DNA of 31,733 nucleotides from a virus (Duplodnaviria; Caudoviricetes). Position numbers and translations under genes: made by a program. Each line of letters starts with the position of its first letter. Within the stretch, counting starts at the first letter, position 1. The DNA is taken from positions 1 to 31,733 of IMG/VR virus record IMGVR_UViG_3300020044_008191, one strand, 5' to 3'. This document shows positions 1-12,609 of this stretch, one piece after another. The notes below the pieces were generated by a model. It had not been told where the DNA came from and did no database searches. It was given only the letters and a program-made list of their open reading frames with translations.

Positions 1-121
1 AATTTATATTCATTAAACAAAGCATTTTTAAACTCAATAGCATAATCAGTTTCAAGTCCGTCAAAATCAATTGTTAGTAATCCTGTAAACCGTTCAATAT
101 TAATATATTTTCTTTGATTTT
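1..121. repeat. Exact 121-bp copy of 1563-1683 at the contig end (probable chimeric or assembly junction)
   Basis: Bases 1-121 match 1563-1683 base for base (offset 1562) and diverge at 122/1684. Confidence 0.95.
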
Positions 122-1014
122 AAACGCTCTACTGTTGTATTTTTTTCAATAACAGTTTCGTCAATCATAATAATATTCTTTGTTGCATAGATTGAGTTAA
201 AGCCTCTTGCCACGTCATCAGGCGAAATAAGAACTGTATTCTCACCAAATATCATATCAATCCAATTTAAAAAAGTAGTTTTCCCTGTTCCTCGTTCGGT
301 GCTTACTAAAGATAAAATAGGCAAAATTTGTTTTGGATGTTCATAAAGTAATTTCATATATTTTAGTCCCAAATGCAATTGTTCCCCAAAAATATGTTTC
401 ATTAAATTTAGTGAATATCTTATATCATCATCTCCTACAATTTCAAAATATGGGTCATGTGGAAATTTGCAATAAAGATTGTAACAACTATTTTTTGAAG
501 GTAAAAAATTAAGATTATCAGGTATTATATCAAAGTCATCATATTTATAAATATGGTTTACAAAATGTGCTGAATGGTCTTGCTTTATTTCATCTTTTTT
601 CCAATGCTTTAATAAAACCGCTTTACCTCCGTATCTATTTTCTTTTAAAATAGTTTTATAATAATCTGTTCCAACTCTTATGTATGGTATTTCTTGTTTC
701 ATTAAAAAGAAACGAACAAATGACATAGCCGAATGATAATCAGCCTTAAATCTAACTTTACAAAACAACATAAATTTAGTGCATTTTGAACCAGTAGCTA
801 TATCAAAATACTCATCGCCAACAACTTGTATAATACCATATTCTTTTAATGTAAAAACAACCTCATTTTGCTTTTTAAGAGTAGATACCTCTGTATCACT
901 TTTATAAAAATGGTTTTTATCATTTTTAAATACCTCTTTAAAATCTCCAAACAAATTAAACCAATCAACTGGGTTTAATTCTTTATTTTTTGTTTCGTCT
1001 TTAAATTTTTCCAT
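100..1014 (-). CDS. Primase-associated helicase (DUF5906/SF3-like P-loop NTPase), C-terminally truncated
   Basis: Walker A ERGTGKTT and Walker B IIMIDE; follows the primase gene; the stop codon lies inside the duplicated 1-121 segment, so the true C-terminus is probably missing. Confidence 0.8.
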   Translation of the reverse strand: MEKFKDETKNKELNPVDWFNLFGDFKEVFKNDKNHFYKSDTEVSTLKKQNEVVFTLKEYGIIQVVGDEYFDIATGSKCTKFMLFCKVRFKADYHSAMSFVRFFLMKQEIPYIRVGTDYYKTILKENRYGGKAVLLKHWKKDEIKQDHSAHFVNHIYKYDDFDIIPDNLNFLPSKNSCYNLYCKFPHDPYFEIVGDDDIRYSLNLMKHIFGEQLHLGLKYMKLLYEHPKQILPILSLVSTERGTGKTTFLNWIDMIFGENTVLISPDDVARGFNSIYATKNIIMIDETVIEKNTTVERLKSKKIY

Positions 1015-1903
1015 CTATAAATAATTTTTGGGTTTGTCCTTTTATAATCATTGTCTTGGCTGTTTTTTTATAAACATCAGCCATGTTTATTCCGCTTGCT
1101 CTCCTTGATAAGTAAGTATTATTATCAATACATTTATTTATTAAAATAATTGCATCATTTTCAGATATGTATTCTGCTGAAACATAACCACCTAAAGCAA
1201 AAGAAACGGCTCTTAATTGCGGATGTCCATTTGATGATATTTTATTGATTGCCGAATGTATGATTTTTTCAACGGTTGAGCTATCATTGTTAATAAAATA
1301 CTGTTGAATAATAGGCTTAATATTCGGTATGTATTTTTTTGTCCAAGTACTAAAATCTTTCCTAAATAAAATATCTTTATCATACGACATAAACATCGGT
1401 AAAACGCAATTTTTAGGAGCTTTATCAAATCCTTTATAAATACCAAGCTCTTGTTCTATTGCGTCAAAATATTGTTTAAATTCGTATACATCGTTAGCAA
1501 TTGGTATTTTAATTAACGCCCTAACTCCTTTTTTTGAGGCTGATAACCATGCACAAATAATAAATTTATATTCATTAAACAAAGCATTTTTAAACTCAAT
1601 AGCATAATCAGTTTCAAGTCCGTCAAAATCAATTGTTAGTAATCCTGTAAACCGTTCAATATTAATATATTTTCTTTGATTTTTTATTATAACGCAAGGT
1701 GTGAAATAATATAATTCACGTTTAAGTTTATCTTTTTCAGCTTTATTTTGACTTTTTGAAGCTTCTGAAATAGCCAAAAATATAGATTCAAATTTTTGCT
1801 TAGGATTTATCATTGAATTAATCCAATATTTTAGACTAACAAATCCTAATGGGCGTGTGCTTTTAATATCACTTTCGTAATATTGAAAAAAAATAGATTC
1901 CAT
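1001..1903 (-). CDS. Primase/prim-pol-like protein with BT4734-like (VirE N-terminal) domain
   Basis: Motifs YFTPC, FTGLLTIDFD and WLSASKKGVRALIKI are typical of this Bacteroidota family; adjacent to the helicase. Confidence 0.75.
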   Translation of the reverse strand: MESIFFQYYESDIKSTRPLGFVSLKYWINSMINPKQKFESIFLAISEASKSQNKAEKDKLKRELYYFTPCVIIKNQRKYINIERFTGLLTIDFDGLETDYAIEFKNALFNEYKFIICAWLSASKKGVRALIKIPIANDVYEFKQYFDAIEQELGIYKGFDKAPKNCVLPMFMSYDKDILFRKDFSTWTKKYIPNIKPIIQQYFINNDSSTVEKIIHSAINKISSNGHPQLRAVSFALGGYVSAEYISENDAIILINKCIDNNTYLSRRASGINMADVYKKTAKTMIIKGQTQKLFIDGKI

Positions 1904-2511
1904 TACAATTTAAGTTTATTGTAATTTTCAATGTGTAATCCTTTAATTTCTTTCGTATGCCAGTTTTTTTCAGTAGTAAAAATTATTTTGTTACTTAACG
2001 AAAAATAAAAGCTTTTATCAAAGTTTCTTCTAACTTCACCAATATTAAAGCCTCCTAATAACCCATTAAAAGTATGGTGCTTATCGTGTAACTGGTGCCT
2101 GTCCTGATGCCATAACAAATAAGAATCATCATTATAATGTTTGAATAAATTTGACTTAACATTTAATTTTTCTTGATGCTCATTTAATAAGAAATAATTA
2201 TAAGATAATGCAGGGCAAATAAATATTGGTATTTTTTTAAAATTTAAATTATCTTTTTTTACATCAAATTCTAATCTTGAATAGTCCATAGCTTGTAAAA
2301 TATACTTTGCTATTTGTTCACCCCTTTTTTTGTCTGGTCGTTTTGCTTCAATTCCAAAATAAACTTCTGTTTGTGGTATTTGCAAAACTAAATCTATTCT
2401 TTTAGTCTTGCATTTAGACCAACATTCTCTTTTTACAATAAAGAATTTTTCAAATTCTAAAACAATTCTATCTACAAATTGTTGCTCCGTTAATTCATTT
2501 GTTTTCTTCAT
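1903..2511 (-). CDS. Putative PD-(D/E)xK nuclease
   Basis: RIDLVL...FGIEAKR fits the D...ExK catalytic pattern; the gene has its own promoter. Confidence 0.5.
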   Translation of the reverse strand: MKKTNELTEQQFVDRIVLEFEKFFIVKRECWSKCKTKRIDLVLQIPQTEVYFGIEAKRPDKKRGEQIAKYILQAMDYSRLEFDVKKDNLNFKKIPIFICPALSYNYFLLNEHQEKLNVKSNLFKHYNDDSYLLWHQDRHQLHDKHHTFNGLLGGFNIGEVRRNFDKSFYFSLSNKIIFTTEKNWHTKEIKGLHIENYNKLKL

Positions 2512-2618
2512 AATATTTTAAATAACAAAATCCGCTAACAGCTACCACACTATTAACGGATTTGTTGGTTTAGTTTTTACACTAAAATATCTTATCGTAA
2601 GTGGTAGATTACTGATTA

Positions 2619-2650
2619 CAAACCTACAAAATTACTTCCATATACGCAAA
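2619..2650 (-). promoter_or_regulatory. Bacteroidota sigma-A promoter
   Basis: -7 TAGGTTTG (2619-2626) and -33 TTTG (2647-2650) with a 20-nt spacer. Confidence 0.7.
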
Positions 2651-2684
2651 CATAATTTGTGTATAAAATCTTCTATTGCGTCTC

Positions 2685-3038
2685 TCATAATAATAATTTT
2701 TTAATAGTTAATTCTTCCTCCGTTAATGCGAAATATAAGTTTTGAAGTTGGTGTACATATTTTAAGCAAACATGCATGTCAATGTTTTGCATAACAAATG
2801 ATTTATTTAAAATAAAATCATAATAATGATAGCACTCTGTTTTTTCATTATATGTAAATCCAAACTTAAATAAATATTCTTCTGTTAATGGGACTGGTTC
2901 TATTTCTTCATAACTTAGGTAATCAAAAGTAATCGTGTCAATAAAAGGACTTTCTTCTGTTATTCCTGTTGTTTTTTGTACTTCATTTGTTCCCAAAGAA
3001 TAAACATAATTACCTACCATTAATTCTCGTGCTTTCAT
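2685..3038 (-). CDS. Phage hypothetical protein (YopX-like N-terminus)
   Basis: 117-aa ORF starting ELMVGNYV and containing KYVHQLQNLYFALT, a pattern familiar from Bacteroidota phage proteins; overlaps the upstream gene. Confidence 0.6.
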   Translation of the reverse strand: MKARELMVGNYVYSLGTNEVQKTTGITEESPFIDTITFDYLSYEEIEPVPLTEEYLFKFGFTYNEKTECYHYYDFILNKSFVMQNIDMHVCLKYVHQLQNLYFALTEEELTIKKLLL

Positions 3039-3484
3039 AATACTTCACTTTTTAAATAATAAGTTACATTCCCTTTAAATCTTTTTTTAATCCATTTATT
3101 GCGATCTGCTTTGTCAAATAATTGCCAACTATTCCATCCTTTAATATCTCTTAATTCTTTGCCAGAAATATAAATATCAGGGACTTTATTATCTTTGATT
3201 ACTTCAATTTCAATTTCGTTTATATCTTTCACTTTATAGTAAATAGTACCTCTTGACGAATAGCAATGATATTTATTACCATTTTCTAGTATCTTACTTT
3301 TAATCACCTTTGCGCTGACTCCTAATTTTTTAACAGCTATTTTCCCATTTATGTAATCAGCATTATCCGTTAGGTCTTCGGACAAGAATCTAAATGTACT
3401 ATTTTTAAGTTCAAAGCGAATATCTGTTATTTTACCAAACATGGTTATCGGATTATGATTTGTGTTCCAAAAATCTTGTATCAT
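3035..3484 (-). CDS. Hypothetical protein (possible DNA-binding)
   Basis: 149-aa basic ORF with ATGA overlaps on both sides. Confidence 0.65.
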   Translation of the reverse strand: MIQDFWNTNHNPITMFGKITDIRFELKNSTFRFLSEDLTDNADYINGKIAVKKLGVSAKVIKSKILENGNKYHCYSSRGTIYYKVKDINEIEIEVIKDNKVPDIYISGKELRDIKGWNSWQLFDKADRNKWIKKRFKGNVTYYLKSEVL

Positions 3485-3729
3485 AATCTATTTATTTCTA
3501 TTTTTAATTCTTTTTCTTCATCAATTAATTCCTGCAATCTAAACAAATAGACTTTATCATTTTCAATTAACCCAGAGGAACGTAAATTAAATAATTGTTC
3601 TCTTAACGAATAATATTCATTTTCAATAGCAATTACCGCACATTGTTTAGCCTGAACAATATCACAATATTCATTTGTAGTAAATAAAAAATTATCAATT
3701 ATTTTAGTTGCTTTTTCTTTTGTTATCAT
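3481..3729 (-). CDS. Phage hypothetical protein
   Basis: 82-aa ORF translationally coupled to both neighbours. Confidence 0.7.
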   Translation of the reverse strand: MITKEKATKIIDNFLFTTNEYCDIVQAKQCAVIAIENEYYSLREQLFNLRSSGLIENDKVYLFRLQELIDEEKELKIEINRL

Positions 3730-3887
3730 AACTCATTTATTTTTGATTCAACAATATAAAAACTTCCTTCTAAATGAACTGTTACAGGAAATTCTTTTTT
3801 TAATTTTTTTCTTTTTTCAACCGATTTAGTGTATAGATTTTCACTTTGTCGGATTGCTTTTCTTTTTTGGTCAGGTGAATATTTCAT
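3726..3887 (-). CDS. Small hypothetical protein (53 aa, not in ORF track)
   Basis: Hand translation MKYSPDQKRKAIRQ...IVESKINEL*; fills the gap exactly with ATGA overlaps at both ends. Confidence 0.7.
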   Translation of the reverse strand: MKYSPDQKRKAIRQSENLYTKSVEKRKKLKKEFPVTVHLEGSFYIVESKINEL

Positions 3888-4093
3888 AGTAAGTCATTTA
3901 CAAGTTTTACATCGCTCTGGCTTATGTTTTGATTCTGTTTCAGATAATCTATTCCTAATCTTTCTGCCTGGCCTAATAAGTCTGATAAGTGTACTACATT
4001 CTTTCTTTTAAGCGTAATATCTTGCTTAAATTTAGGAAAGGATATGAATGTACTGGTAGTCTTTATTTTCTCTTTAAATTGTTGTTCTGTCAT
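3884..4093 (-). CDS. Hypothetical protein
   Basis: 69-aa ORF with A-rich leader, in operon context. Confidence 0.65.
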   Translation of the reverse strand: MTEQQFKEKIKTTSTFISFPKFKQDITLKRKNVVHLSDLLGQAERLGIDYLKQNQNISQSDVKLVNDLL

Positions 4094-4104
4094 GTTTTTT
4101 TTGT

Positions 4105-4326
4105 TTAAAATGGGTAATCTGATTTTGGTATCAACTCTGTATGTTTGTTTATATCTGATTTTTTATAGAATTTACCTGATATGAAATATCCAACTGAACC
4201 TCCGTTCTTAGTACATTTTAATATCCTACCTGTCTGGCAATTAATTATTTTCTTACACGTTGTTACTTTGTAATGATTACGCTCACTGAACTGCCATTTT
4301 ACTGTGAAGTTTACTTGTACAATCAT
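4105..4326 (-). CDS. Small basic hypothetical protein next to the cassette array
   Basis: 73-aa ORF; HYKVTTCKKIINCQTGRILK loosely resembles a NUMOD4-type beta motif. Confidence 0.65.
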   Translation of the reverse strand: MIVQVNFTVKWQFSERNHYKVTTCKKIINCQTGRILKCTKNGGSVGYFISGKFYKKSDINKHTELIPKSDYPF

Positions 4327-4384
4327 ACTTTAACTTATTAATACTTAATTATATAGGGTATATCTTAATTTCTATTAGCCAATA

Positions 4385-4395
4385 GTTAGTAGCAA
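4385..4395 (+). other. GTT core site opening the first cassette (attI-like or degenerate attC)
   Basis: GTTAGTAGC (4385-4393) is the exact reverse complement of GCTACTAAC (4674-4682) at the other end of the cassette. Confidence 0.6.
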
Positions 4396-4397
4396 GA

Positions 4398-4640
4398 CTA
4401 CCTATATCCTTGAAACCAGCATTCCATTGTAGTAGCGTACCATTTTACTATGTTTTTATCATTTCTTATTCTAAACATAATTTTACTGTTTTGCATTCCG
4501 TATTCAATCTTACCTTTTTCAGCAACAATTTCAATATAGTATTTTTTGCCTATTGTAACATCTTTCAAAGTTCCGTTACCATCTTTCAATACTTCGATAT
4601 AATCACCTACTTGGCAGTTTTCCAATCTAATCTTTTCCAT
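4398..4640 (-). CDS. Hypothetical protein, cassette gene 1
   Basis: 80-aa ORF bounded by complementary core sites; stop codon 2 nt from GTTAGTAGCAA. Confidence 0.7.
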   Translation of the reverse strand: MEKIRLENCQVGDYIEVLKDGNGTLKDVTIGKKYYIEIVAEKGKIEYGMQNSKIMFRIRNDKNIVKWYATTMECWFQGYR

Positions 4641-4673
4641 TTCAATAATATTTAGTTTTTAATTATCCGTCCA

Positions 4674-4758
4674 GCTACTAACAGCAGCTACACAATACCA
4701 GCCGAACATACGCAACCACATAGGCTGGCATCGTGTAGCTGCGCAACGTTATGGGTAA
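4674..4758 (+). mobile_element. attC-like recombination site 1
   Basis: CTAAC-A-GCAGCTACAC-AATA-CCAGCC...GGCTGG-CATC-GTGTAGCTGC-GCAAC-GTTATGG: a GC-rich imperfect palindrome bounded by AAC and GTT. Confidence 0.7.
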
Positions 4759-4761
4759 TAG

Positions 4762-5022
4762 CTACCACGTTTCGGTTTCAATAACTTTTGAATACCTATT
4801 AATTTCTCCATATAAAGCCCAAAAAGTTCCCACGAAAGTTGCCGATAATTCCAAAGCATCGGGTGTGAATTCGTGTTGATACCAAGTTAGCTTTCTGTAT
4901 TTTCTATACCACTTAAAATCATTTAGATAGTAATCAGTCCAAATAGGCTTCTGCTTATAAGTACTGCCACTAATAGCGTTTTGGCAAGATGCAGGATTTT
5001 CGTTTATTCCGTTTTTCATCAC
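4762..5022 (-). CDS. Hypothetical protein, cassette gene 2
   Basis: 86-aa aromatic-rich ORF whose start lies in the loop of attC-like site 2. Confidence 0.65.
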   Translation of the reverse strand: MMKNGINENPASCQNAISGSTYKQKPIWTDYYLNDFKWYRKYRKLTWYQHEFTPDALELSATFVGTFWALYGEINRYSKVIETETW

Positions 5023-5096
5023 GTTTTGTTTTTAATTAATAAAATTTAGTTTTCATAAGTCCTGCACCTCGCCAAGACGCAGGACGTTAGTGGCAA
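4965..5096 (+). mobile_element. attC-like recombination site 2
   Basis: TGCCACTAAT (4965-4974) and GTTAGTGGCA (5086-5095) outer boxes; inner arms 4976-4999 and 5057-5080 are complementary at 20 of 24 positions. Confidence 0.7.
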
Positions 5097-5099
5097 CGC

Positions 5100-5288
5100 C
5101 TATCGTTGTGATTTAGACTTCATTTTTTCAATTGCTTCATAAATCTTACGTTTAGTTTCGAAAGATTTAGGCTCTTTTTTGCTCCAATTGAATAGCGTAT
5201 CATCTGATACTTTTGCCTCTCTCAAAACATCGCTAATTTTCAAACCAAGCGTTTTACATAGCTTTTTTATTTCGTCTGCCTGTTTCAT
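5100..5288 (-). CDS. Cro/XRE-like HTH regulator
   Basis: LGLKISDVLREAKVSDDTLFNW fits a helix-turn-helix pattern; near divergent promoters. Confidence 0.65.
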   Translation of the reverse strand: MKQADEIKKLCKTLGLKISDVLREAKVSDDTLFNWSKKEPKSFETKRKIYEAIEKMKSKSQR

Positions 5289-5473
5289 TGTACAATTATA
5301 TCGGTTAATGCCTCTATTACGTATTCTTTAATATGCCATGATACGTCCATATCATTTATTTTTATTGTCATCCAGGAAAAACCGCCTTTGTACCCTGTTG
5401 TTTCATCTGCCGAATCCCATTCCCCAGACACTTCATAATCTACGCCTTCGTATGTAATGTTATATGTTTCCAT
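5285..5473 (-). CDS. Small acidic hypothetical protein (start revised to METYNITY)
   Basis: The ATG at 5473 lies downstream of the promoter at 5499-5506, whereas the longer track start overlaps that promoter. Confidence 0.65.
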   Translation of the reverse strand: METYNITYEGVDYEVSGEWDSADETTGYKGGFSWMTIKINDMDVSWHIKEYVIEALTDIIVQ

Positions 5474-5498
5474 TATTATAATGTTTTTAAGTTCATTG

Positions 5499-5561
5499 CA
5501 AATATACGACGTAAATTTCCAATATTTTATTTTTTTATTCAAAATGTTTATCGTACGTTTG
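5499..5561. promoter_or_regulatory. Divergent promoter pair
   Basis: Leftward TATATTTG (5499-5506, minus) and rightward TACGTTTG (5554-5561, plus) between divergent operons. Confidence 0.7.
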
Positions 5562-5581
5562 CGGTATAAAAATATAAAACT

Positions 5582-5878
5582 ATGAGTAAACTACTTTACG
5601 GAAGCTTAGACTTCACAAAACTATTAGAATTGGCAAAATCAGGAAACAAAGCGTTTTCAAAAGCCTCAAATGGTAAAATTTATCTTAATGTAAACGTTTG
5701 GATAAATGACGAAAAAGATAATTATGGCAATGACGCTAGTGTTCAGATTACTTTTAAAGACGCAACAAAAGAAGAAAAAGTTTATTGCGGAAATTTAAAA
5801 GTAAGCGAACAACAATCTCCTAAACCATTAGAAGAAGGAAGTAATGAAATTCCAGAAGCTGATGACCTTCCTTATTAG
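5582..5878 (+). CDS. Single-stranded DNA-binding protein (Bacteroidota phage type)
   Basis: NGKIYLNVNVWIND core and acidic tail ADDLPY; located in the recombination operon. Confidence 0.7.
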   Translation: MSKLLYGSLDFTKLLELAKSGNKAFSKASNGKIYLNVNVWINDEKDNYGNDASVQITFKDATKEEKVYCGNLKVSEQQSPKPLEEGSNEIPEADDLPY

Positions 5879-5894
5879 AAAGGTGTAAAAATAT

Positions 5895-5925
5895 TTTGTT
5901 TTTACCATTTTAAACATTATCTTTG
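5895..5925 (+). promoter_or_regulatory. Internal promoter for the Zn/HNH gene
   Basis: TTTG (5895-5898), 19-nt spacer, TATCTTTG (5918-5925). Confidence 0.65.
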
Positions 5926-5951
5926 TGAATATAATTTTAAAATCAGTAATT

Positions 5952-6494
5952 ATGATGCCGTTACAATTCACAAAGATTTGTTTTAAGTGCAACGAACAAA
6001 AAGAATTTAAATATTTTTACAAGCACCCTAAAATGTCTGATGGATATTTAGGAAAATGTAAAGATTGCACAAAAAAAGACTCTAAAATAGCTTTAGAGTT
6101 GAAAGTATCTACACCTGATGGTTTGGAAAAAGAAAGAGAAAGGCATAGGGAAAAATACTATCGATTAGGGTATAAAGAAAAACACAAGCCTACTCCTGAA
6201 AAGAAAAAAGAAATAATGGATAGATACAAACTTAGGTATCCTGAAAAAATAAAAGCAAAAAATCTATGCAGTAATTTAAAGCCAAAAAAACAAGGAAATG
6301 AATTGCATCATTGGAGTTATAATATAGAATTTGCGAAAGATGTAATTGAATTAGCAAGTTCAGATCATTCAAAAATACATAGATTCATTAAATACGATAA
6401 AAAAACTTTCATGTACAAAGACTTGAACGGTGTGTTACTAGATACAAAAGAAAAGCATTTAGAGCTAATAAATAAAATATTATCAAATTTTTAA
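5952..6494 (+). CDS. Zinc-finger/HNH-like endonuclease
   Basis: CFKC...CKDC at the N-terminus and ELHHWSYN...DHSKIH HNH-like motif; start moved to the ATG downstream of the promoter. Confidence 0.65.
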   Translation: MMPLQFTKICFKCNEQKEFKYFYKHPKMSDGYLGKCKDCTKKDSKIALELKVSTPDGLEKERERHREKYYRLGYKEKHKPTPEKKKEIMDRYKLRYPEKIKAKNLCSNLKPKKQGNELHHWSYNIEFAKDVIELASSDHSKIHRFIKYDKKTFMYKDLNGVLLDTKEKHLELINKILSNF

Positions 6495-6505
6495 AACTAT
6501 CAATT

Positions 6506-7033
6506 ATGGAAACAACAACGCATACAGACTGGCGAAAATATCGAAAGTCAACACACTTAGCTAGTGCTGATTTAGATGCATTAGAAACGGAAGGAATACC
6601 CCTAATTTTTACAATTAAGGAGGTAAAATATGAAACAAATGTAGATGTATCAGGAACAAAAATGGATGGTATATTTTGCTATTTTACGCAGCCAATAAAA
6701 CCATTAAAATTAAATTCAACTAATAACAAAATATTAGCTGGATTTGCAAAGAAAAACGGTTTAATTGGAAAGGAATGTCATGTTATAGAAAATTGGAAAG
6801 GCATGACAATTGAATTGTATGTAGATAGAAATGTCCGTATGATGGGTGCTATTACAGATGGGGTTAGGATTAAGCCTATTATGCCTATATTAAAAAAAAC
6901 ACTTCCAGAATTTACGGAGTCAAATTTTGAAGCTGCAAAAAAAGCAAACGCAACAATTGAACAGATAAAAACTAAATATACAATAACTCCAGAAATGGAA
7001 CAAAAATATATACAACATGGAACAAAGGAGTAG
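6506..7033 (+). CDS. Putative ssDNA-annealing (recombination) protein
   Basis: Position between SSB and the YqaJ exonuclease, with a gene overlap; no family motif confidently identified. Confidence 0.5.
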   Translation: METTTHTDWRKYRKSTHLASADLDALETEGIPLIFTIKEVKYETNVDVSGTKMDGIFCYFTQPIKPLKLNSTNNKILAGFAKKNGLIGKECHVIENWKGMTIELYVDRNVRMMGAITDGVRIKPIMPILKKTLPEFTESNFEAAKKANATIEQIKTKYTITPEMEQKYIQHGTKE

Positions 7034-7658
7034 TGAATGGTTTGAACTTAGAAACGGACGTTTTACCGCTTCTGAGGTTCATAAATTAATGGGCGTAAAA
7101 GGATTAGGTGAAACGGGTAAAACCTATGCTTTTGAAAAAGCTATTGAAGATCTTTTTGGTCAAATAGACGAGCCTTTCGAATCTTACGATATGCAACGAG
7201 GAACAGAATTAGAACCGCTTGCCTTTGAAAAGTTTAAGCAAATTAAAGCGATGGATTTTATAGATGTAGAAACCTGTTCTTTTTTTGAATATGAAAAAAA
7301 TGCAGGAGCTTCTCCTGATGGTTTAGTTGGTGAAAATGGTCTTTTAGAAATTAAATGCCCAAAATCAAACGCTTTTTTTAAGATGGTCGCTGAAAATGAA
7401 TATAGCAAAAACTATTTTTATCAAGTTCAGTTTCAAATGTTATGTACAAATAGGAATATAGCATATTTATTTTTCTATACCGTACATGATGGTTCTGAGT
7501 ACTATCACGAAATAGAAATACCAAGATGTGAGGAGACAATTTCATTAATGCTAGAAAGAATAAAAGAAGCTTCAATTATTAAAAATGACTATATTTTAAA
7601 AATACAAAAAAATAGTCAATGGGAAAGAAAAGAATTTGATATTGAAGTAAAATTTTAA
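7017..7658 (+). CDS. YqaJ/lambda-exonuclease family protein
   Basis: QRSSEWFELRNGRFTASE, MQRGTELEP, GASPDGL, LEIKCP and YFYQVQFQM motifs. Confidence 0.92.
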   Translation: MEQRSSEWFELRNGRFTASEVHKLMGVKGLGETGKTYAFEKAIEDLFGQIDEPFESYDMQRGTELEPLAFEKFKQIKAMDFIDVETCSFFEYEKNAGASPDGLVGENGLLEIKCPKSNAFFKMVAENEYSKNYFYQVQFQMLCTNRNIAYLFFYTVHDGSEYYHEIEIPRCEETISLMLERIKEASIIKNDYILKIQKNSQWERKEFDIEVKF

Positions 7659-7682
7659 CTATCTTTACCTCGATAGTTTTTG

Positions 7683-7703
7683 CCCTCTACGGAGGGTTTT
7701 TTT
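7683..7703 (+). terminator. Rho-independent terminator of the recombination operon
   Basis: CCCTC-TACG-GAGGG followed by T7. Confidence 0.8.
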
Positions 7704-9345: not shown

Positions 9346-12300
9346 TTAATTTATATTATATTGAAATGTTACGCTGCCAGCGTAAGTACCTGTACTGCTT
9401 GGGTACAGGTATATTACTCCCTGTGTAGTGTTTCCACTTGTTTGAAAACTAGCAGGCAACCTTGTATTACTTTGAAAAATAGCACCAGAACCCGAATTTA
9501 AAACATTTGATACAGTTCTCGCAATAGGTAAAGTTATAGTAAGAACAGTATTTGTGTTCGCTGCCGTTGGGGCAACACTAAATCCGATGTTTACGGTCAC
9601 AATATCTCCGATACGTGTGTAGGTTGCATTAGTCAATGAGCTAGTTGTTATATTAGCGGTATTAGTCAAAGTTGGCGTATAATTCCCCCCTGATGCCTGA
9701 GCCTGCACAAAAGCCGTTGTAGCAATCTGTGTTGTATTTGTTCCCGCTGCTGCCGTTGGAGCTGTTGGTGTACCTGTTAGAATTGCCCCACCAGTGTATG
9801 ACGATGCGGTAACTGTTGAAGCGAATGTTGCTGCTCCTGAAGTGTTCAATGTAAATTGGGGTGTCGAGCTTCCTGCTGCTAAAAATATCTTGCCCGAGTC
9901 GTTCCTAAGTCCCATATCAGAAGCTACACCACCAACAAAAACGGTTCCTCCTGCGAACATTTGATTTGTTTGGACGCCATTGTTTAATACGTATCGAAAA
10001 TTCGTGTTAATAATACCGTTAACATCTAAAGGAGTAGATGCTGTTACAGTTCCTAATCCTAAATTAGCACCATTATAAAATAAATTACTATTTGAAAAAG
10101 TGCTGTTCGTTGTTATTTTAGGCACGTACCCCGTCGTCGCTTCGTTTGAGAAAACAGAGATTCCCGCCGCGTTATTGGAAGTAAACGCTCTTGAAACAAT
10201 GTCCCCTACCCATTTAGTCCCTACAGGAAAAGAAGGGTGAATTCCGTCACTCGTTAAAGTAGGAATGGTTTGTAAATTAAATTGAGACAAAGAATACAAG
10301 TCTACACATTGGACTGAGTAGTACTTGCATATACTGCTTATAGTTGAGGACAGCATTTCAAGACTCCACCCTCCGAACCCTACATGAGACTTGTAAGTCC
10401 TTCCAGAAGTTCCTCCATCTGCCTCTGGTGGCGTTATGATAAAAATTTTTATTATGGGATTGGCGGTCAAAGCTACCTGTATAAATTCTTTTATATTTGC
10501 CGACACACTGCCGTCTCCTATGACAGAATTTACACTGCCCAAGGGGATAGTTCCATTAGACTGATCATTAACGCCTATATGTAGACTTATAATGTCAAAA
10601 TTATTTAAAAAAGCTGCATTAGCAAGTATCTGTGCTTTCAGAACAGCCAATTGTCCCGATGAAACATCCCCCGAAACAGCATACGTAACTGCTGTCATAT
10701 CTAAATTATCTTTAACCGTACCTACATAGTCATTGACCAAATCATTGGAGAACGAATCGCCAAATATAACCCATCTTTTAGCCGCTAAATCGGTGAAGTT
10801 TTTAGCATTCAAATTACCTGAGAATGCCCCTTTGCCATCTACTTCAAATTTATAACCAACGGTTCCGAGTGTTTTGTTCACTAACAACCCTCCAGTAGCT
10901 GAATTGAATCTTCCAACCTCTATCCCTGCATTCTTAAAAGAAACGTAAGAGCTACCCCCTCCTGCGTTTATACTAAAATTGAATCCTGTGTCTTCGTACC
11001 CAATGCTGGCGGCAGGTGTGTTGTCCAGTGAGCGAAAAAAACCTATTCTTTGTTTAAAATTTTTTGTTCCGTCAATATTCTGATTCCCTGTCACTTTAAC
11101 AACATTAGAATCATTTGCCGGCACATACCCATTATAAGTTCCTCCTATGACATCCCCCGCTCCAGTTACAGAAAATTTAGTAGTTCCTGCATTGTTCTTA
11201 CCAACATAGATATTATTAGCGTCATTACCTGTACCTTCTTGTACGGTAACTGCTCCTAGTGCCGTGGTTGTTATTGTATTTCCTTTATCGTATGAACTTT
11301 GTAAGTCTATTTCTTGTAAAGCATCATATACCGCATCTTCACTTGGCGACTTATCAGTTACTCCGTTTGTGATTGTTTGGGTGATTTTTGAATCCAATTG
11401 ACTTTTTACAACAACTTCATTGCTTAAAGTAGCAGGATTGGCTTTTACAGTTCCATTAAAAATTGAATTTCCTGCGACTTGAAGTCTGTGTATTCTGTCA
11501 TCTGTCACACTTCCTATTATAGTATTTCCTCTTACTACATAAGAAGCACTTGTTCCTAAAAATATTGAACCATTATATAAATTATTGTCAGTAGGTGAGT
11601 TGTTTCCCCATCCAGCGGTCAAATAAACGCTACCACCAAATCCCAATGCAGAACTATTATTTCCTGCTTTTAATTGAGCTGAACCTGGATTTAGATATGA
11701 CGTACCTGCTTGTAAAATAGCGTCCCCACCTCTTCCCGGAAATAAAGTCCCTGTACCAGTAGCCACCCCTCCATCACCTGCCAGAATAGATATATCTCCA
11801 CCATTGCCTGAAAGACCAGTTCCTGTAACTCCAAAAACGTTACCTCCATTTCCCGCTTTAATATTTATAGCCATAGCATTTCCAGCTACTACTGTCCCCG
11901 TTGTATTTGTATTTCCTCCACCATTACCACCTGTAACAACCAACGGAGTGATTGCATTTAATGCAGTAGTTCCGCTAGCTATGTTTGGCGTTATTAGACT
12001 TAGCGTTCCTATTTTAGTTTCATTCCCTGTTTTATGAACAACGTCAGCATCGTTTGCTTTTAAAGCCAAAACGTTATTAACAGCATCAACAGTTGGGAAT
12101 TTTACGCCAGTACCATCAACCGCTAATGAGTTTTGTTTGTTTGAAGCATTTATAACTCCTGCTCCGCTAACCGAAAAAGTAGTAGTTCCTGCATTGTTTT
12201 TAACAACTAAAACGTTATTAGCGTCATTTCCTGTACCTTCCTGCACGGTAACTGCTCCCAACCCTGTAGAGGTTGTTATTGTATTTCCTTTATCGTATGA

Positions 12301-12609
12301 ACTTTGTAAGTCTATATCTTGTAAAGCATCATAAACAGCATTTTCACTTGGGGCAATAGAATTAATGCCATTACGAATAGTGTCTGATACTTTTCCGTCA
12401 ATAGCTATTTGAGTTTGAGTTGATACGGGTAAATTAGCAGGCAAAATTTTCCCCTGTGTGCCATCTGTTCCTGTTGTGGTTAGGAAATTTGGTGAGGTTA
12501 CTGTTTGCGCTGAATTGTTTTTAATTCCATAGTCAAACTCCTGTTCTTGACCAGTTGTGGTCTGTGCTATACTCCATAATGGAAGTAATAATAATATTAG
12601 TTTTTTCAT
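9346..12609 (-). CDS. Tail fibre/spike-like protein with SGNH/GDSL hydrolase domain
   Basis: Gly/Thr-rich fibre modules (LTGTPTAPTAAAGTNTTQIATTAFVQ, KANDADVVHKTGNET); SGNH blocks FGDS, GVND and DGIHP; signal-peptide-like N-terminus. Confidence 0.75.
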   Translation of the reverse strand: MKKLILLLLPLWSIAQTTTGQEQEFDYGIKNNSAQTVTSPNFLTTTGTDGTQGKILPANLPVSTQTQIAIDGKVSDTIRNGINSIAPSENAVYDALQDIDLQSSYDKGNTITTSTGLGAVTVQEGTGNDANNVLVVKNNAGTTTFSVSGAGVINASNKQNSLAVDGTGVKFPTVDAVNNVLALKANDADVVHKTGNETKIGTLSLITPNIASGTTALNAITPLVVTGGNGGGNTNTTGTVVAGNAMAINIKAGNGGNVFGVTGTGLSGNGGDISILAGDGGVATGTGTLFPGRGGDAILQAGTSYLNPGSAQLKAGNNSSALGFGGSVYLTAGWGNNSPTDNNLYNGSIFLGTSASYVVRGNTIIGSVTDDRIHRLQVAGNSIFNGTVKANPATLSNEVVVKSQLDSKITQTITNGVTDKSPSEDAVYDALQEIDLQSSYDKGNTITTTALGAVTVQEGTGNDANNIYVGKNNAGTTKFSVTGAGDVIGGTYNGYVPANDSNVVKVTGNQNIDGTKNFKQRIGFFRSLDNTPAASIGYEDTGFNFSINAGGGSSYVSFKNAGIEVGRFNSATGGLLVNKTLGTVGYKFEVDGKGAFSGNLNAKNFTDLAAKRWVIFGDSFSNDLVNDYVGTVKDNLDMTAVTYAVSGDVSSGQLAVLKAQILANAAFLNNFDIISLHIGVNDQSNGTIPLGSVNSVIGDGSVSANIKEFIQVALTANPIIKIFIITPPEADGGTSGRTYKSHVGFGGWSLEMLSSTISSICKYYSVQCVDLYSLSQFNLQTIPTLTSDGIHPSFPVGTKWVGDIVSRAFTSNNAAGISVFSNEATTGYVPKITTNSTFSNSNLFYNGANLGLGTVTASTPLDVNGIINTNFRYVLNNGVQTNQMFAGGTVFVGGVASDMGLRNDSGKIFLAAGSSTPQFTLNTSGAATFASTVTASSYTGGAILTGTPTAPTAAAGTNTTQIATTAFVQAQASGGNYTPTLTNTANITTSSLTNATYTRIGDIVTVNIGFSVAPTAANTNTVLTITLPIARTVSNVLNSGSGAIFQSNTRLPASFQTSGNTTQGVIYLYPSSTGTYAGSVTFQYNIN
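11159..11346. repeat. Intragenic direct repeat, copy A
   Basis: Encodes PSEDAVYDALQEIDLQSSYDKGN...FSVTGA and closely matches 12161-12351. Confidence 0.9.
12161..12351. repeat. Intragenic direct repeat, copy B
   Basis: Encodes PSENAVYDALQDIDLQSSYDKGN...FSVSGA; offset 1002-1005 nt from copy A. Confidence 0.9.

Follow-up and report, generated by a model that had tools for sequence, protein, structure and literature searches.

Integrons, and the sedentary chromosomal ones in particular, are built on GTT/AAC cores closing imperfect palindromes of conserved structure and variable sequence. Their cassettes are single-gene units with complementary ends that enter at a site without a hairpin, and the available part of PMC7790495 presents the I2 insertion as the defining innovation of integron integrases. 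In phages, the closest described counterparts are the integrase-less attC clusters (CALINs) of Qi et al. 2023 (PMC9892861), who reported 17 of them in 10,705 phages. The available text of that paper lists no Flavobacterium phage, interprets the sites as classical attC lying in "divergent directions" and attributes the gain of attC to off-target or illegitimate recombination. Integrons with an inverted integrase (Cury et al. 2016) were, according to the accessible text of PMC4889954, defined among proteins that match the IntI profile, which the Bacteroidota enzyme discussed below fails; the string "Bacteroid" does not occur in that text.

The locus described here lies in the early region (around 1-7700) of the window, the whole 31,733-nt stretch of DNA that was analysed, which is an entire 31.7-kb virus record with a CheckV completeness of 82%. 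Its structural genes are siphovirus-like, and among cultured phages its closest DNA matches are Flavobacterium phages. The locus is, with good confidence, a two-cassette array whose units are gained and lost at G^TT, likely through a host-supplied, I2-less tyrosine recombinase that is predicted to act on a folded single strand. Its cassette nature is close to certain and, judged from sequence comparison, it is real, active and small, one case of an integron-like cassette system that is widespread in Bacteroidota phages and has its cargo reversed. With the phage CALINs of Qi et al. it shares integrase-less attC clusters, lytic phages and methyltransferase cargo, whereas a reversed class, a docking site and an I2-less recombinase are not described in the available text of PMC9892861. 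Open-licence PMC and bioRxiv papers yielded no description of the reversed class or of the I2-less system. What appears new is that strains almost identical to one another differ by an exact excision, that there is a docking site and that hairpins are swapped at the inner core. The features are as follows.

4105-4326, minus strand: conserved 73-aa gene, the fixed flank next to the docking site (74 homologs, 24 viral loci)
4373-4393, plus strand: attI-like docking site, consisting of a box, a spacer (4380-4384), G^TT at 4385/4386 and then the box of the first cassette
4386-4748, plus strand: cassette 1 (363 nt), with matching end boxes, a reversed 80-aa gene and hairpin 1
4398-4640, minus strand: 80-aa gene of cassette 1, start codon outside the hairpin
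4674-4750, plus strand: attC-like site 1, with inner box 4674-4682, 1-nt spacer, 5-nt spacer and G^TT at 4748
4684-4703 and 4723-4742, plus strand: arms of site 1
4749-5086, plus strand: cassette 2 (338 nt), with a reversed gene and hairpin 2, its two boxes unmatched
4762-5019, minus strand: 85-aa gene of cassette 2, starting within the loop of hairpin 2
4966-5088, plus strand: attC-like site 2, with inner box 4966-4974 (AAT), 5-nt spacer and G^TT at 5086
4976 to 5080, plus strand: span of the arms of site 2
5086-5099, plus strand: fixed box beside the HTH stop, kept in two relatives (L001 and L002) with other hairpins next to it
5100-5288, minus strand: 62-aa HTH-like gene, the fixed upstream flank (phrog_4779, E 8e-4)
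5499-5506, minus strand: predicted -7 box of a leftward promoter, TAnnTTTG type, a sequence match to the consensus

The first-pass annotation had proposed an attC array with three GTT cores, each leading into the stop of a leftward gene. The cores are indeed there (GTTAGTAGCAA-GA-CTA at 4385-4400, GTTATGGGTAA-TAG-CTA at 4748-4764 and GTTAGTGGCAA-CGC-CTA at 5086-5102), and in each case the CTA corresponds to the TAG stop of an open reading frame on the minus strand, of 80, about 85 (85/86) and 62 aa, respectively. The core motif, in a pattern drawn up after the sites had been seen, occurs 4 times in the window where 0.68 occurrences are expected, and 1 of 100 shuffles attained that count of 4. 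The end boxes of cassette 1 are exact reverse complements (4385-4393 versus 4674-4682), and the A.C mismatches of site 1 become G.T pairs on the minus strand, both as noted before. Two of the three cores close hairpins that fold far better than shuffled sequences, with z values of -5.0 (minus strand) and -2.8 (plus strand) for site 1 and of -4.5 and -3.7 for site 2. At both sites, R''/R' cores (AAC...GTT) close an imperfect palindrome, the inner core of site 2 reading AAT. A detector of the geometry AAC + 5 nt + arm..arm + 1 nt + GTT gave scores above 30 in the window for these two sites only (48.0 and 46.5; next best 25.5). Its control was a set of 54 other viral loci, 53 of them chance matches from a viral scan with the end motif of cassette 2; in their 249,562 bases it found two sites, which belong to a single locus, itself a genuine cassette array. 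Set against the definition of a CALIN (at least two attC sites by covariance model and no IntI nearby), the window has two attC-like sites as counted by this detector, and no integrase was found in it.

The right-arm motif of site 2 retrieved 37 viral and 121 cellular loci, the latter mostly Bacteroidota. In phage and host sites, Watson-Crick pairs make up 78-79% of 14 arm positions, compared with 42-52% once the arms are shuffled between sites. Ungapped pairing extends through position 18, with conserved wobbles and no conserved bulge. The commonest spacer is 1x5 (131 of 225 viral and 213 of 267 host sites, a count biased by a detector itself built around 1x5), compared with about 5x6 in integrons. 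The extrahelical bases on the L''-R'' arm and the roughly symmetric unpaired spacer, attC features as defined in the available part of PMC2727003, are absent from these sites, and no extrahelical bases are conserved. An unannotated array of the same type, with a hairpin like site 1 of the window, occurs in the long-sequenced Flavobacterium phage 11b (L030 2107-3010).

The remaining core, at 4385, is not an attC site: the stretch 4300-4400 does not fold (z +1.2/+1.4 against shuffles), and the hairpin-less core belongs instead to a conserved attI-like docking site, which has the spacing of the hairpin sites without their arms. A motif resembling TAAC-TAYYN-GCTAAC is found on the gene strand upstream of the 73-aa gene in 18 of 20 related loci, and the DNA on its array side is unrelated between loci. 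These 20 are the 24 viral loci minus two duplicates and two with less than 100 nt upstream, one of which shows no docking site. Loose contig ends fall at 4385 and 4388, in the docking site. From such boundaries it can be inferred that the docking site acts as an attI-like entry site. In Flavobacterium hosts, attI lies 30-110 nt behind the recombinase stop (L338-L367) and is a long imperfect palindrome ending in TATA-N4-6-GTT, which is absent from the phage docking site.

The flanks of the array are fixed. On the docking side, the 73-aa protein has an Atlas NUMOD4 row at 0.84, below 0.9 and therefore a lead only, the other rows being unnamed viral clusters, and a fold search with its low-confidence model (pLDDT 59) gave no match. 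A role as a recombination cofactor was considered for this protein and found to be unsupported, and it was dropped because cultured phages carry a different gene at the docking site. On the other side, the 62-aa HTH-like protein is 95-97% identical in two relatives, and the box at 5086-5099 is likely left over from the distal part of the site as it was when empty.

The proposal that single-gene cassettes are exchanged at G^TT is borne out by an exact skip and by breakpoints in relatives. In contigs of runs X1, X3 and X4, from two studies, position 4745 is joined to 5084, so that the 338 nt of cassette 2 are skipped; the skip contigs otherwise show no differences from the window. The junction is ambiguous by 6 nt that include G^TT, which places the crossover within ACG^TTA. 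No excised circle was seen in the contigs, in which rare circles would not show. The form bearing cassette 2 rests on the window assembly, which begins with a 121-nt duplication, the runs compared having no coverage of the middle of this cassette. Other contigs show cassette 1 behind a different hairpin end (run X2, loose end 4385) or a different cassette after the 4385 site (run X1, loose end 4388). In alignments of related phages, gene content likewise changes at the cores. Homology between the window and a complete relative (G001) ends at 4393 and restarts at 5084, and three close relatives keep the HTH flank and have other cassettes. L001 and L002 have the HTH gene and its box in common with the window and diverge at the AAC or a few bases from it. 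Among cultured phages, a single 506-nt unit of mumin6-1 is missing from mumin6-4, and the sequences to either side of it are 99.9% identical. Over eight cultured Flavobacterium phage arrays, which are related so that their breakpoints are not independent, an outer core is no more than 14 nt away from 44 of 53 distinct breakpoints, compared with about 5% expected by chance; three others lie at an inner core and six at neither.

These comparisons also show that a hairpin moves together with the gene next after it, as read along the gene strand. The mobile unit, as judged from the breakpoints because box matching alone cannot tell on which side the hairpin travels, is thus shown to be hairpin, gene and end box on the gene strand. 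End boxes match in at least five of six positions in 111 of 121 viral single-ORF units (9% when shuffled) and in 79 of 88 host units (16% when shuffled).

Cassette 1 was sought in other arrays, as had been suggested, and the same gene with the same hairpin was found in L003. The 80-aa protein, which has no Pfam family and a weak PHROG match only, is 70% identical to its homolog there; the arms and flanks are alike, and both boxes have changed together. Arms nearly identical to those of site 1 occur in L002, L003 and phage 11b with other genes attached. For the cassette 2 protein, a viral scan gave no relative, and a metagenome scan gave a single homolog, which is an ordinary phage gene beside which no hairpin was seen. 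Since the cassette 2 gene starts in the hairpin loop, one arm and the inner box encode the N-terminus of its product. Among 24 homologs, six have leaders derived from other hairpin arms and the rest have none, which implies that ordinary phage genes are put into cassette frames.

The earlier caveat that the ends of cassette 2 do not match is correct; its inner box matches the HTH-side box and not its own end. The inner box is native to the gene, as homologs show, and the end box pairs with another frame in L328. The mismatch is best read as a replaced end box, possibly replaced through microhomology recombination. The pairing of the cassette 2 hairpin with the HTH-side box is good and would favour the excision observed. 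Two other explanations were dropped: conversion of the inner box to match the HTH box is contradicted by its native state in homologs, and copying of the neighbour is not usual in mismatched boxes, since only the window's unit matches its neighbour among 10 viral units with an own-match of at most 4.

Odd junctions of this kind occur elsewhere. Of 23 viral pairs whose bodies are nearly identical, nine show a different arm or box. They go back to about four independent swaps, and several switch at the inner GTT; none of six host pairs differs. Inner-core swaps at sites without extrahelical bases fit the result of Bouvier et al. in the available part of PMC2727003, in which removal of these bases led to recombination of the top strand at R'' and relaxed the strand choice. 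Between mumin6-1 and mumin6-4, three of only four differences in 4.2 kb fall within one 6-nt inner box (L028 ~5325-5336, L029 ~4819-4830), which matches the cassette's own end in mumin6-4 and not in mumin6-1. This looks like templated conversion or inner-core exchange.

Breakpoints can be placed only within a common word of 6-7 nt, which microhomology recombination of the phage could use as well. Shuffling of cassettes at TAACGTT by a Red-like system of the phage (YqaJ exonuclease plus annealing protein), the hairpins being relics or replication stallers, is the foremost of the alternatives, and an improbable one. A YqaJ domain is encoded at 7017-7658, some junctions intrude into boxes or arms by a few bases, and the end box of cassette 2 appears swapped. 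Homology of 6-7 nt is, however, very short, and such shuffling does not account for arm pairing that is kept while the arm sequence changes (78% versus 42% shuffled), for both end boxes co-varying, for the conserved docking site or for the same geometry beside a recombinase in hosts. Red-like recombination probably accounts for a minority of odd junctions and not for the system.

Site-specific exchange by a recombinase supplied in trans, the preferred reading, agrees with the gene content of the phages. As the first-pass annotation had stated, no integrase is present: PF00589 has no match in the window (82% complete) or in five relatives, one of them complete with terminal repeats, and no tyrosine recombinase is annotated in mumin6-1. 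Host arrays, by contrast with those of integrons, lie 3' of a co-oriented recombinase, starting behind a tyrosine recombinase of 280-420 aa. In 10 of 11 such host genes a GTT core, read by eye, lies 50-130 nt behind the stop. A protein-first search found the array-linked enzyme in 59 of 101 Flavobacterium genomes (E below 1e-60). Among 29 short Flavobacterium loci, a co-oriented site lies downstream of the gene in 13 and upstream in two, one further match being left out as the attI palindrome itself; among loci with at least 1.2 kb, the downstream site is found in 12 of 18. Large phages (L199-L201) have a 266-aa recombinase of their own at the docking end of a reversed array, in the place of the 73-aa gene of the window phage. 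Among the best 80 viral recombinase loci, 25 have a detector match, mostly single and near classical IntI-type genes, and only L199-L201, L209 and L220 fit the window-type system. It is likely, by linkage, that the host I2-less tyrosine recombinase moves the phage cassettes.

The idea of "IntI-type" recombination holds for the integron-like function and not for the enzyme, which lacks the IntI-specific insertion and stays below the profile cut-off, or for the sites, which lack extrahelical bases. As in integrons, the best profiles of the tyrosine recombinase include TIGR02249, which it matches in two pieces, with 197-208 bits for host and 132-161 bits for phage enzymes (cut-off 265; control IntI 470). 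In an alignment, the I2 insertion of about 31 residues is absent from the array-linked enzyme and present in three IntI-type controls. The XerA-like NF040815 is the best profile for three of four host and three of three phage enzymes tested, and the scores fall below the XerC and XerD cut-offs. The enzyme has the fold class of XerA, XerC and XerD and, like them, no I2; unlike them, it lies beside cassette arrays and occurs in part of the genus only.

Action in trans of a classical, I2-bearing IntI or of the host XerC/XerD, which would make the locus an ordinary CALIN, is a shade less probable again than Red-like shuffling. The GTT/AAC cores, folded sites and cassette logic are integron-like, genes resembling XerC/D occur in nearly all Flavobacterium genomes searched, and IntI1 recombined five of six phage sites according to the accessible part of Qi et al. 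2023 (PMC9892861). However, the sole failure of IntI1 there, P12002L_attC1, is a hairpin of the window type. Moreover, no match over the TIGR02249 cut-off was found in five array-bearing host genomes, the scores of the array-linked enzyme are well separated from the XerC/D band, and IntegronFinder 2.0 names, in the available text, only Salinibacter for a complete Bacteroidetes integron (PMC9024848). On the long-spacer-first strand, P12002L_attC1 is followed by a methyltransferase gene, whose end box agrees with the inner box of the site. The attC2 that Qi et al. give for P12002L coincides with a docking-type end as defined here, and this Polaribacter phage appears to be a member of the window-type system. 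The strict detector gave no site scoring at least 28 in P12002L, and the site was located from the table of Qi et al.

Full IntI-type integrases are present on viral contigs L229, L230, L235, L251, L253-L255, L261, L263, L270, L272 and L274. Immediately before several of these genes stand a stop codon and a TAAC/AAC word, and the integrase of L229 reaches 470 bits on TIGR02249. Phage-borne classical IntI looks commoner than reported.

Gene orientation separates the phage arrays from those of their hosts, in line with the suspicion that the genes run antisense to the host polarity. Counting as a unit the DNA between adjacent sites, and as reversed a unit whose longest ORF lies on the long-spacer-first strand, in 46 viral and 34 host loci, 149 of 154 viral units are reversed, versus 14 of 121 host units, five of which sit in one contig of phage-derived appearance. 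The phage cargo does not consist of host genes, and phage cassettes form a reversed class of their own. The distance from stop to core is at most 12 nt in 94 of 117 phage units, and in 31 the stop is inside TAAC. The longest ORF begins within the hairpin in 55 phage units, although the longest-ORF rule may overcall starts. Contig L143 (8720-18640), labelled Saccharibacteria, has a phage-type reversed array and is probably a misbinned phage or prophage. Single phage-type reversed cassettes stand beside host-type ones in Bacteroidota contigs (L073 1-340; a 455-nt unit in L105), possibly reflecting exchange between the phage and host pools.

A leftward promoter reading the reversed genes had been postulated, and a predicted one is found upstream at 5499-5506, its TAnnTTTG-type consensus being taken from the available part of PMC9723704. 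It would read the HTH gene, cassette 2 and cassette 1, entering, unlike in integrons, at the end opposite to the docking site. A promoter-like box together with several tiny genes is found in some phage cassettes (L028 ~4700-5400; L001 ~5366-6160), which suggests that promoters too travel as cassettes and could re-start transcription inside arrays.

On one and the same site strand in phages and hosts, a G.T pair stands at arm position 14 in 88 of 128 phage and 159 of 210 host sites, and a C.A pair at arm position 5 in 77 of 128 and 134 of 210. This strand is transcribed only in phages, so the asymmetry follows recombination polarity and not transcription. The folding energy of the whole site favours the bottom strand in 103 of 128 phage sites but in 106 of 210 host sites, which hints at added selection on phage RNA. 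That the hairpins act in RNA, as RNase III sites, terminators or translational control of the early operon, with gene turnover incidental, is the least likely alternative: the better-folding strand is the predicted transcript in the window and in those 103 viral sites, and gene 2 starts inside hairpin 2, but 4000-5700 holds no terminator-like site, an Rfam search gave no family at the sites and two chance-level matches outside them, the wobble positions recur in hosts, where the strand is antisense, and matched end boxes and exact excision are left unexplained. A secondary RNA role is possible.

For recombination of folded sites by an I2-less enzyme, the following course can be proposed. During phage replication, the minus (bottom) strand would fold into a stem in which the R boxes are paired and a 1x5 loop makes the structure asymmetric. 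The array-linked recombinase of the host, or one supplied by a large phage infecting the same cell, would act on this stem. Cassettes would be excised by attC x attC recombination, and the circles would be inserted at the docking site or at another hairpin. As the docking site faces against the leftward early promoter, only reversed, phage-built cassettes would be read in sense, their translation start being supplied by the hairpin or by bases after it. Sites without extrahelical bases would allow occasional use of the inner core, so that hairpins would be swapped between genes.

Gain and loss at G^TT with complementary ends, the crossover lying within a 6-nt word, and an attI-type entry site are shared with integrons; because the IntI insertion, the extrahelical bases and the gene orientation of integrons are lacking, the system is called integron-like and not a classical integron. 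A wider interpretation, somewhat short of probable, is that a second Bacteroidota integron lineage without the I2 helix has been hijacked by lytic phages, the docking site serving as an orientation filter and recombination at both cores as a route of cassette genesis. If the filter operates, phage-built reversed cassettes (host-range methyltransferases, orphan early genes) would be expressed and captured host cassettes silent. If both hairpin cores recombine, gene bodies would change or flip their hairpins, a visible route for new cassettes. Cassette origin would become testable with lab-grown phage-host pairs in which ordinary phage genes occur with and without frames, or in different frames. 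Much of the early-region mosaicism of Flavobacterium-type phages would be site-specific cassette exchange and not random recombination. Over half of the sampled Flavobacterium genomes would have integron-like platforms missed by standard tools, and the view that the I2 helix is required for folded-strand recombination would be challenged.

Methyltransferase genes are cassette cargo in the cultured Baltic phages, and the isolating study (PMC7077304) linked these methyltransferases, in its available text, to plating efficiency; the words "integron" and "integrase" do not occur in that text. The system may thus tune host range.

Two further observations concern the window outside the array. Positions 1-121, in which the primase ORF (100-1014) ends, are an exact copy of 1563-1683; the copy is probably an assembly artefact of the contig end. 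Within the gene of the 1087-aa tail protein (9346-12609), 194 nt are repeated (11156-11346 and 12158-12351, 85%), and inspection by eye showed a stretch of the protein that resembles GDSL/SGNH.
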